Below, one piece after another: positions 3,001 to 6,000 of a stretch of DNA of 64,000 bases (the stretch's first letter is position 1; each line of letters opens with the position of its first letter). Source of the stretch: Escherichia coli O127:H6 str. E2348/69. Lineage in GTDB: Bacteria; Pseudomonadota; Gammaproteobacteria; Enterobacterales; Enterobacteriaceae. Made by a program: the position numbers. The DNA is taken from NCBI RefSeq assembly GCF_000026545.1, contig NC_011601.1. One strand, written 5' to 3'.

Positions 3001-6000
3001 GCGCACTACGTTATGGGCACCAGCCGATAGCACCCTACAACGCGTAGCACGTTACACCATGATATTGCTAATGCTGGCTGAATTCGGAGCGTGGATATGG
3101 TTACGTTAGAACAGTTTCGCTATTGCCCGACACACTCAACGCATCCTCCGTTCTGTTATGACTTTCACTATGTCAAACCGGGGATGGTCGCCATCTTTGG
3201 TGACAACGGCAGTGGCAAAAGTACGCTGGCGCAGCTGATGGCGGGCTGGTATCCGGACTTTCTACCAGGAGAGATAACCGGCACGGGGACGCTTCTCGGT
3301 ACGCCCATTGGGCGTCTCCCGCTTAATGAACAATCCGCCACCATCCAGCTCGTCCAGCAATCGCCCTATTTGCAGCTCTCCGGCTGTACCTTTAGCGTGG
3401 AAGAAGAAGTTGCCTTTGGGCCAGAAAATCTGTGTCTTGCTGAAAAAGAGATTATGGCGCGGATTGACGCCGCCCTGGCCCTGACCGAGTGCCAGCCGTT
3501 GCGCCATCGTCACCCGGCAACACTCTCCGGTGGAGAGACACAGCGTGTGGTCATCGCCTGCGCCATCGCGATGCAGCCAAAGCTCTTAATTCTTGATGAA
3601 GCCTTTAGCCGCCTGACGCCGAAGGCCAGCGAAATGCTGTTGCAGCGCTTACAACACTGGGCGCTTGAACGTGGTTCGCTGATTATTCTTTTTGAACGTC
3701 ATCACACACCTTTCCTGAACCACTGCCAGCAAGCGTGGCAATTGCAAAACGGAGCGCTCCAGCCACTATGTTAACGTTAAATCAGATATCTTATCGCTGA
3801 CCTGGCGCGGCAACGGATTGTCTTTGCGACATTTCTCTGCAACTCAAACAAGGTGAATGGCTGGCGCTGACCGGCGACAATGGCGCGGGAAAATCGACGC
3901 TGTTACGAGTAATGGCAGGTCTTCTTACGCCCACAGCCGGTACGGTTATGCTGCAACAACAAGCGATGAAAAACCTGAAAAACCGCCAGCGCGCGGCAAA
4001 GATTGGCGTACTGTTTCAGGAAGCGGAAAATCAGCTTTTTCACAGCACCGTTGCTGACGAAATCGCATTTGGTTTGATACTGCAAAAATGCCCGGCGGAT
4101 GAAATCACTCAACGTACCAATGCTGCCCTGCAATGCTGTCAGTTAGCAGACACTGCCAGCGCGCATCCGTTAGATCTGCATAGTGCGCAGCGACGGATGG
4201 TCGCCGTCGCCTGCCTGGAAGCACTCTCTCCGCCACTATTGCTACTGGACGAGCCGAGTCGGGATTTTGACGAAAATTGGTTGAGCGTGTTTGAAAGCTG
4301 GCTGGAAAAGTGCCGCCAGCGAGGCACGAGCGTCGTAGCAATCAGTCATGACGCCGCATTTACCCGGCGTCATTTCTCTCGTGTGGTGCGACTGGAAGAT
4401 GGTGTAATCAGGAACGTTAATCCATCAGACGATATTCACCCGTAGCGGTCATCATTAAGGTCAAATTTGCAGGCAGACTCTCTTCCAGCACCCGACGAAC
4501 ATTCGGCCCGTCGGTACGGTCATAAAAGGCTTCTGCGTCTGCCAGCGATAACCCTCCCGCCAGCTTGCGCCCCACCAGACGCTCCCGCAACGCAGATGCG
4601 GGAGCTTTGATAAAGATCGAGAAATCACAAAATTGCGCAAGCTGGCACCACTTCTCGTCGTCCAACAACAACCAGTTTCCTTCGACGATGACGAGTGGTG
4701 CGGTAACGTGCAACACATCTTCAACAGGATCATGCTTTTGTCGATCGTACTGCGGCCACGTACAATCCCCTTCCACAACCCGGCACAGATTTTCCGCCAG
4801 TTTCGCAACGTTGAATGTCTCTGGTGCGCCTTTGAAGGGTCGCAATTGATGCACATCCAGCCAGCTATTGTAATGGTGAAAACCATCCATCGGCAGCGTC
4901 TGAATAGCGGGCAGTTCCGGGTCTTGTTGCGCGAGATATTCCCAGAAGGTGGTTAGGGTAGATTTACCCGTCCCCGGCGGAGCGCAAAGAAAAACCACCG
5001 TACGCCGCTGCGGATTTACTGTCTGTAAGGCCGCCAGCATACGCAGCAATGGTTTATGTACATTTTCAATTTCATCATCAGAGTACTGCGCCTGTACCTT
5101 TAGTCCATTCACCGTCAGTTCGATTTTCACGGCGTTAATTCCTTTAAGGTGGTCGTTACTGCCAGCGTCAGCGCCGTTTTGACCATCCCGCTAAAACGCG
5201 CCTCTGACCAGACGGCGAAATCGGCGAACTTCATCGCTTTCAACGCGTCATAGAGCGTCGCATTGCGGGTTATGCTATTGACGTTGCTGATAAAATCCCA
5301 GGTCATGTCATCAGCAAATCCGGGCGTTTCATCCTGTTCGTTCAGGTAATGCCAAAACTGGGAAAAATGCGTGATATCGGCGTACAGCCATTTATCCATT
5401 TTCCCCAGCGCATAAATCAAACGCAGCGCAACATCAATATCGTCAAGCGGGCCGCTTTGGGCGAGTAACGGCTTCACTGCATATTCGACGATCTCTTCAT
5501 CGTTATCGACAAACAGCGACGGCAGAAACTGGCGTATCCCCTGGAGCAAAATAGAATGCGCAGTTTTCATAAATGAAAATAAATTGTCCTGTGCATCCAG
5601 TTGCTCAAGCACATCATCTTCTGTCAGCGTCGCCATTGGTCTTCCGATAGATCACCATCAATGCAGGGAGTCTATTATATTACACGTTTGGTCCGCGCCG
5701 CCGATCAGTAATGTCTGCGTCCGCACCCCATTCGCCGTCTGTTGGATACCGTTCACCAACTCGCCGCCCGTCACGCCCGTAGCGCTAAAGAGGATATCGT
5801 TCCCCCTCACCAGTTCATCGAGCGAGTATACACGGTTAACGTCAACGCCCATTGCCTTACAACGCTTGCGCTCCTGCTCTGCAATCTGCCGATTTTCCGT
5901 GTAATCCCCTTTAGCCTGACAAAAGTCAATCAGCTCGGCCTGCATATCCCCGCCTAATGCTTTAACGGCACAGGCAGAAATAACACCTTCCGGTGCGCCA

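Follow-up and report, generated by a model that had tools for sequence, protein, structure and literature searches.

Dedicated (group I-like) ECF transporters, of which the EcfAA'T modules (4HUQ, 5JSZ) are examples, combine an S component, a T component and two distinct ABC ATPases, and the genes of their operons are contiguous and overlapping. In this work, we analyzed a locus of the same composition and the same compact arrangement, which lies beside epd in Escherichia coli E2348/69, within a stretch of 64,000 nucleotides (hereafter the window; positions are counted from its first letter). The gene for the second ATPase (ATPase 2) of this locus is interrupted by a TGA at codon 11, and in this respect it resembles the ordinary nonsense pseudogenes of E. 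coli pathovars that are labelled 'internal stop' by PGAP: it has the same single-base in-frame stop and the same intact orthologues in sister strains. Nothing material distinguishes it from these pseudogenes, the only small twist being that a UGA-C stands at a Trp codon, where readthrough would restore the native residue. Altogether, our results argue, with a probability of about 90%, for a recent nonsense mutation in the second ATPase gene that is private to E2348/69 and that would leave the transporter very probably non-functional or strongly hypomorphic.

An accessory ECF cluster beside epd

The ECF cluster sits between epd and a yggC-like kinase gene (Table 1). It was found in 3329 of the 5426 complete E. 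coli genomes, being missing from about 39% of them, and we therefore regard it as an accessory insertion. The PPC-domain protein encoded by its first gene gave zero matches in an NCBIfam search. The S component matched the Pfam family ECF_trnsprt (PF12822) over its full length (E=1.8e-8, model positions 2-168 of 169), and its best NCBIfam match was the CD3073-family S component (NF045596), with 136.2 bits against a cut-off of 180 bits, so that CD3073 is the nearest family without membership in it; in this, the locus differs from the dedicated ECF transporters mentioned above. The match of the T component to CbiQ (PF02361) was weak (E=1.3e-4) and near full length (model positions 16-210 of 216), and the translation of this component shows the Arg-containing coupling-helix motifs AQRARG and ALDMRAF.

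Regarding the ATPases, a generic ABC_tran domain and every nucleotide-binding motif were found in both of them. Their best NCBIfam matches were ECF_ATPase_1, ECF_ATPase_2 and cbiO (ECF_ATPase_1 and cbiO in the case of ATPase 1), all well below the curated cut-offs, as exemplified by the 145.6 bits obtained for ECF_ATPase_2 against a required 330. The translation of ATPase 1 contains a Walker A (GDNGSGKST), a canonical signature (LSGGE) and a Walker B (LLILDE). That of ATPase 2 contains, downstream of the stop, a Q-loop, the signature LHSAQ, the Walker B LLLLDE and the H-loop SHD, at the position of which ATPase 1 has the run ERHH. The Walker A, Walker B and H-loop of ATPase 2 are canonical. 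Its signature (4176-4190) is degenerate, and the form LH(S/T/A)AQ is conserved in 16 of 16 orthologues, in contrast to the systems built on EcfAA'T modules. Taken together, these motifs suggest that the ATPases form an asymmetric dimer, in which one ATP site follows the consensus and the other is degenerate. The two proteins share just 28% identity and would therefore be distinct subunits of a heterodimer; unlike the PDB-matched EcfA proteins (about 270-290 aa), both are short (225 aa). A search of the published literature for an ECF transporter together with epd and yggC returned nothing concerning this transporter, and a link to vitamin B6, considered because of the adjacency to epd, was dropped as pure speculation.

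Table 1. Coordinates in the window of the ECF cluster (PPC protein, S component, T component, ATPase 1 and ATPase 2, in this order), of its flanking genes and of the elements within ATPase 2.
Feature	Position	Strand	Evidence
epd	upstream of 1369	-	RefSeq and ORF listing
Putative DNA-binding protein with a PPC/PCC domain (first cluster gene)	1369..1800	+	RefSeq WP_000988707.1; PF03479 on orthologues
ECF transporter S (substrate-binding) component, 192 aa, intact	1823..2401	+	PF12822; RefSeq WP_000113903.1
ECF T (transmembrane coupling) component, 235 aa, intact	2402..3109	+	PF02361; RefSeq WP_000553242.1
ABC ATPase 1 (EcfA-like), 225 aa, intact	3097..3774	+	motifs in translation; RefSeq WP_000256972.1
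ABC ATPase 2 (EcfA'-like) pseudogene, 226 codons, sole interruption the stop at codon 11	3768..4445	+	translation; RefSeq
Premature TGA, G-to-A at 3800, replacing Trp11	3798..3800	+	translation; orthologue and genome comparison
Walker A of ATPase 2 (GDNGAGKST), codons 36-44	3873..3899	+	translation; invariant in orthologues
Residual 177-aa ORF, devoid of A-loop and Walker A	3912..4445	+	ORF listing
yggC-like kinase, convergent to ATPase 2	4417-5130	-	RefSeq and ORF listing
fumE, glpX	beyond 5130	-	RefSeq and ORF listing

Some further observations concern the surroundings of the cluster. The ATPase 2 frame (+, ending at 4445) and the convergent yggC-like kinase gene (-, ending at 4417) share 29 nt at their 3' ends (4417-4445). 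Further downstream, three contigs from other strains (L006, L012 and L014) lack about 640 bp of the window (5808-6450) inside glpX, which encodes a yggF-like class II fructose-bisphosphatase, and just a 62-aa remnant of it is left in them. Two other genes of the window, one for a prohibitin-family protein (10148-11056, +, between tkt and cmtB) and one for a 243-aa hypothetical protein (15563-16294, -, between speA and speB), may also be accessory insertions in otherwise core neighbourhoods. Rfam matched the ES036 (CssrF) sRNA at 11127-11169 (-) with 50 bits, the gathering score being 37.6; this match falls in the space that separates the prohibitin-family gene from the transketolase gene. At the far end of the window, a tRNA-Phe gene (42615-42690, +; Rfam match at 42615-42687) is followed by an integrase gene and a pathogenicity island (within 42615-64000). 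This island, which belongs to a known type of effector island in EPEC, carries espL2, nleB, nleE and the first part of efa1/lifA, a gene that continues past the window end (64000). Among these genes lie many degraded transposase pseudogenes of the IS630, IS1, IS4 and IS66 types.

The TGA at codon 11 of ATPase 2

The original prediction, made from the sequence of this DNA, described a second ATPase gene whose start codon overlaps the stop of the first and whose Walker A is cut off from any usable start by an in-frame TGA. This description proved accurate in all its parts: (i) the ATG at 3768-3770 overlaps the TAA of ATPase 1 (3772-3774) as ATGTTAA, (ii) the frame translates as MLTLNQISYR and a stop, followed by an open ABC-ATPase frame to 4445, (iii) the Walker A lies 3' of the TGA and 5' of Met49, encoded by the ATG at 3912, and (iv) no in-frame ATG, GTG or TTG exists at 3801-3911, the ORF listing placing the start of the ORF of this frame at 3912. 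It is the residual 177-aa ORF that gene callers report in public assemblies (P0002). RefSeq labels ATPase 2 as a pseudogene ('internal stop') in each of the three complete records that come from E2348/69 or a derivative, and its status as a pseudogene is thus already known from public annotation.

The same prediction held that TGG is the normal state of codon 11 and that a single G-to-A change gave rise to the stop. Position 3800 is indeed a G in DE17, which is the nearest relative sampled (99.6% identical over the locus), and in O157:H7, and both strains encode an intact 225-aa ATPase 2; intact orthologues of this length are recorded as WP_000956879.1 and WP_000956885.1. The 5426 complete E. 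coli genomes were searched with a 30-mer centred on 3800, so that any megablast seed was forced to span this base. Exact matches to the TGG form were obtained in 3104 genomes and to the TGA form in 3, all of them E2348/69 or derivatives. Furthermore, Trp11 is invariant in the 16 orthologues compared (69-96% identity), which come from Escherichia, Salmonella, Citrobacter, Klebsiella, Atlantibacter and Leclercia. With TGG in essentially all other locus-carrying E. coli, a Trp that does not vary across six genera and the RefSeq label of an internal stop, the G-to-A nonsense reading is well founded. In HMMER comparisons against solved structures, the residue opposite Trp11 in NBD1 and NBD2 of ABCB4 was the Tyr in the motifs '...SYP...' and '...NYP...', and Trp11 is thus the counterpart of the A-loop tyrosine of ABCB1/ABCB4. 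We take the Tyr of these two motifs to be the A-loop residues, which stack on the adenine ring of ATP.

A single-base departure from all close relatives is also the pattern expected of a sequencing or assembly error, in which case the true base at 3800 would be G and the gene intact, and the original prediction had carried this caveat. However, three complete assemblies that were deposited separately and stem from different laboratory lines agree on the A, namely CP059840.2 (E2348/69), LT827011.1 (E2348/69 'variety 2') and LT903847.1 ('EPEC1', which was constructed from variety 2). The Logan assembly SRR1577788 and the ENA assembly ERZ761545 have this A as well and match the window at 100% identity over 2.2-2.7 kb. 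Around the TGA, 2.9 kb of the window are 100% identical to NZ_CP059840.2, and position 3800 lies outside any homopolymer run. Because five assemblies are concordant, the A at 3800 is real for E2348/69; the caveat falls, and an error, to which we assign a negligible probability, is effectively refuted.

An exact-sequence look-up of the residual 177-aa ORF yielded 10 contigs, and alignment placed the TGA in only two of them (L007 and L009, from the Logan and ENA assemblies above), both 100% identical to the window; of the other contigs, L008 has an unrelated junction beside dnaK, and L010 and L011 have scaffold gaps. Neither the complete genomes nor the contigs with the 177-aa ORF gave evidence of the TGA allele outside the E2348/69 lineage. 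As a test against chance is inapt for a single-base difference, reproducibility and conservation were used as tests, and the TGA is reproducible and the Trp conserved.

The second ATPase gene is also damaged in other isolates. Two contigs (L006 and L012; Logan SRR28764845 and SRR28764850) keep the TGG and carry an independent 1-nt deletion just upstream of the Walker A. Among the protein sequences, a double frameshift scrambles the Walker A of ATPase 2 in P0036, an in-frame deletion of 19 aa takes out its signature motif in P0035, and the truncated forms P0040 and P0044 comprise 47 and 71 member sequences, respectively. Some of these lesions may be assembly errors. The pattern is one of occasional decay of a dispensable accessory locus. 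In E2348/69 itself, pseudogenes are found about 40-50 kb away, outside the window (NZ_CP059840.2, 912000-950000), where an internal stop interrupts xdhD and an ISEc13 insertion divides ygfK; our search of the literature on E2348/69 pseudogenes found nothing specific.

Possible recoding, readthrough and reinitiation

A TGA followed by an intact frame might be a selenocysteine codon or a programmed frameshift signal, and the identity of the codon and the intact downstream frame are the only points in favor of such recoding. Against it, the orthologues have neither Cys nor Sec but Trp at residue 11, and TGG is the codon in the 3104 genomes mentioned above. A SECIS-like hairpin downstream of the UGA was found neither by Rfam on 3700-3950, where a permissive E-value gave only a chance match of 9.9 bits, nor by folding the 63 nt from the TGA (3798-3860), which fold no better than shuffled sequences (z = 0.27). 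The site has the UGA-C tetranucleotide in common with the prfB +1 frameshift site (CUU UGA C; CTTTGAC in the E2348/69 prfB). In contrast to prfB, it possesses neither a Shine-Dalgarno-like stimulator upstream of the stop nor a slippery P-site codon, and whereas prfB continues in the +1 frame, the rest of ATPase 2 stays in the zero frame past the TGA, and a programmed frameshift would destroy the protein. The TGA is not a frameshift site. Selenocysteine insertion or programmed recoding in general was rejected on the basis of the Trp orthologues, the lack of an Rfam family and the fold test, and its probability is close to nil.

A leaky stop would have a milder outcome. The near-cognate Trp-tRNATrp might read the UGA-C often enough to provide functionally meaningful amounts of wild-type ATPase 2, and the transporter would then be turned down, possibly in a condition-dependent manner. 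The base after the TGA is a C, and UGA-C is reportedly the weakest terminator context. The residue inserted would be the native one and, because it is the exact wild-type Trp, a little intact ATPase 2 may be made. UGA is the leakiest stop codon of E. coli, and its readthrough by Trp-tRNATrp in K-12 varies with temperature and metabolism, from about 2% at 37 C to about 4% at 25 C (PMC10570021). On the other side, the restriction of the allele to a single strain speaks against selection in its favor, and a stimulatory structure or motif was absent in the Rfam and fold tests. Besides, the prfB of E2348/69 encodes an RF2 with Ala246, which is the efficient-termination allele, Thr246 of the K-12 RF2 being the weak one; the K-12 readthrough figures probably overestimate what happens here for this reason. 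Nothing suggests that low-level readthrough is programmed, and we consider a functionally meaningful leak unlikely. If it did take place, readthrough at around the percent level, and perhaps higher at low temperature or in certain metabolic states, would leave E2348/69 with a down-tuned, condition-dependent ECF transporter instead of a dead one.

Finally, reinitiation at the ATG at 3912, or at a non-canonical codon, might give a truncated yet active ATPase, in line with the ORF that is open from 3912 and called by gene callers. The product, however, would be devoid of the A-loop and of the whole Walker A, indispensable for ATP binding in ABC ATPases, and an AGGAG-like ribosome-binding site is absent upstream of 3912. 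An active ATPase arising in this way is therefore exceedingly improbable.

Probable consequences for the transporter and for E2348/69

The recent nonsense mutation that we favor would have replaced the G at 3800 by an A, turning codon 11 from TGG into TGA in the gene for the second ATPase subunit of a dedicated ECF-type ABC importer. Translation from the ATG at 3768, probably coupled to the termination of ATPase 1 via the ATGTTAA overlap, would stop after ten residues, and the residue lost at the stop itself would be the invariant aromatic A-loop position. As the Walker A, Q-loop, Walker B and H-loop are all encoded 3' of the stop, and no usable restart codon lies before the Walker A, the T component would very probably be deprived of its second, non-identical ATPase partner.

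Judging from the sequence of the subunits, transport would very probably be lost. The claim of an inactivated transporter, also part of the original prediction, seems reasonable because the low identity of the two ATPases marks them as distinct subunits, and the motor should be disabled because the sole fully canonical composite ATP site would use the Walker motifs of ATPase 2. Some ECF systems run on a homodimer of a single ATPase and, by analogy with these, ATPase 1 alone may sustain partial function. A polar effect on other genes is not expected, since ATPase 2 is the last gene of the operon and faces a convergent gene.

The importance of this finding is limited: it is mostly a matter of strain bookkeeping, it opens no new biological question, and the flag of an in-frame TGA was quickly settled by population comparison. 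Even so, E2348/69 is the prototype EPEC (O127:H6) laboratory strain, for which it is useful to know that the ECF transporter beside epd is probably non-functional, and experiments on this transporter would be better carried out in a strain with the TGG allele or in a repaired E2348/69.
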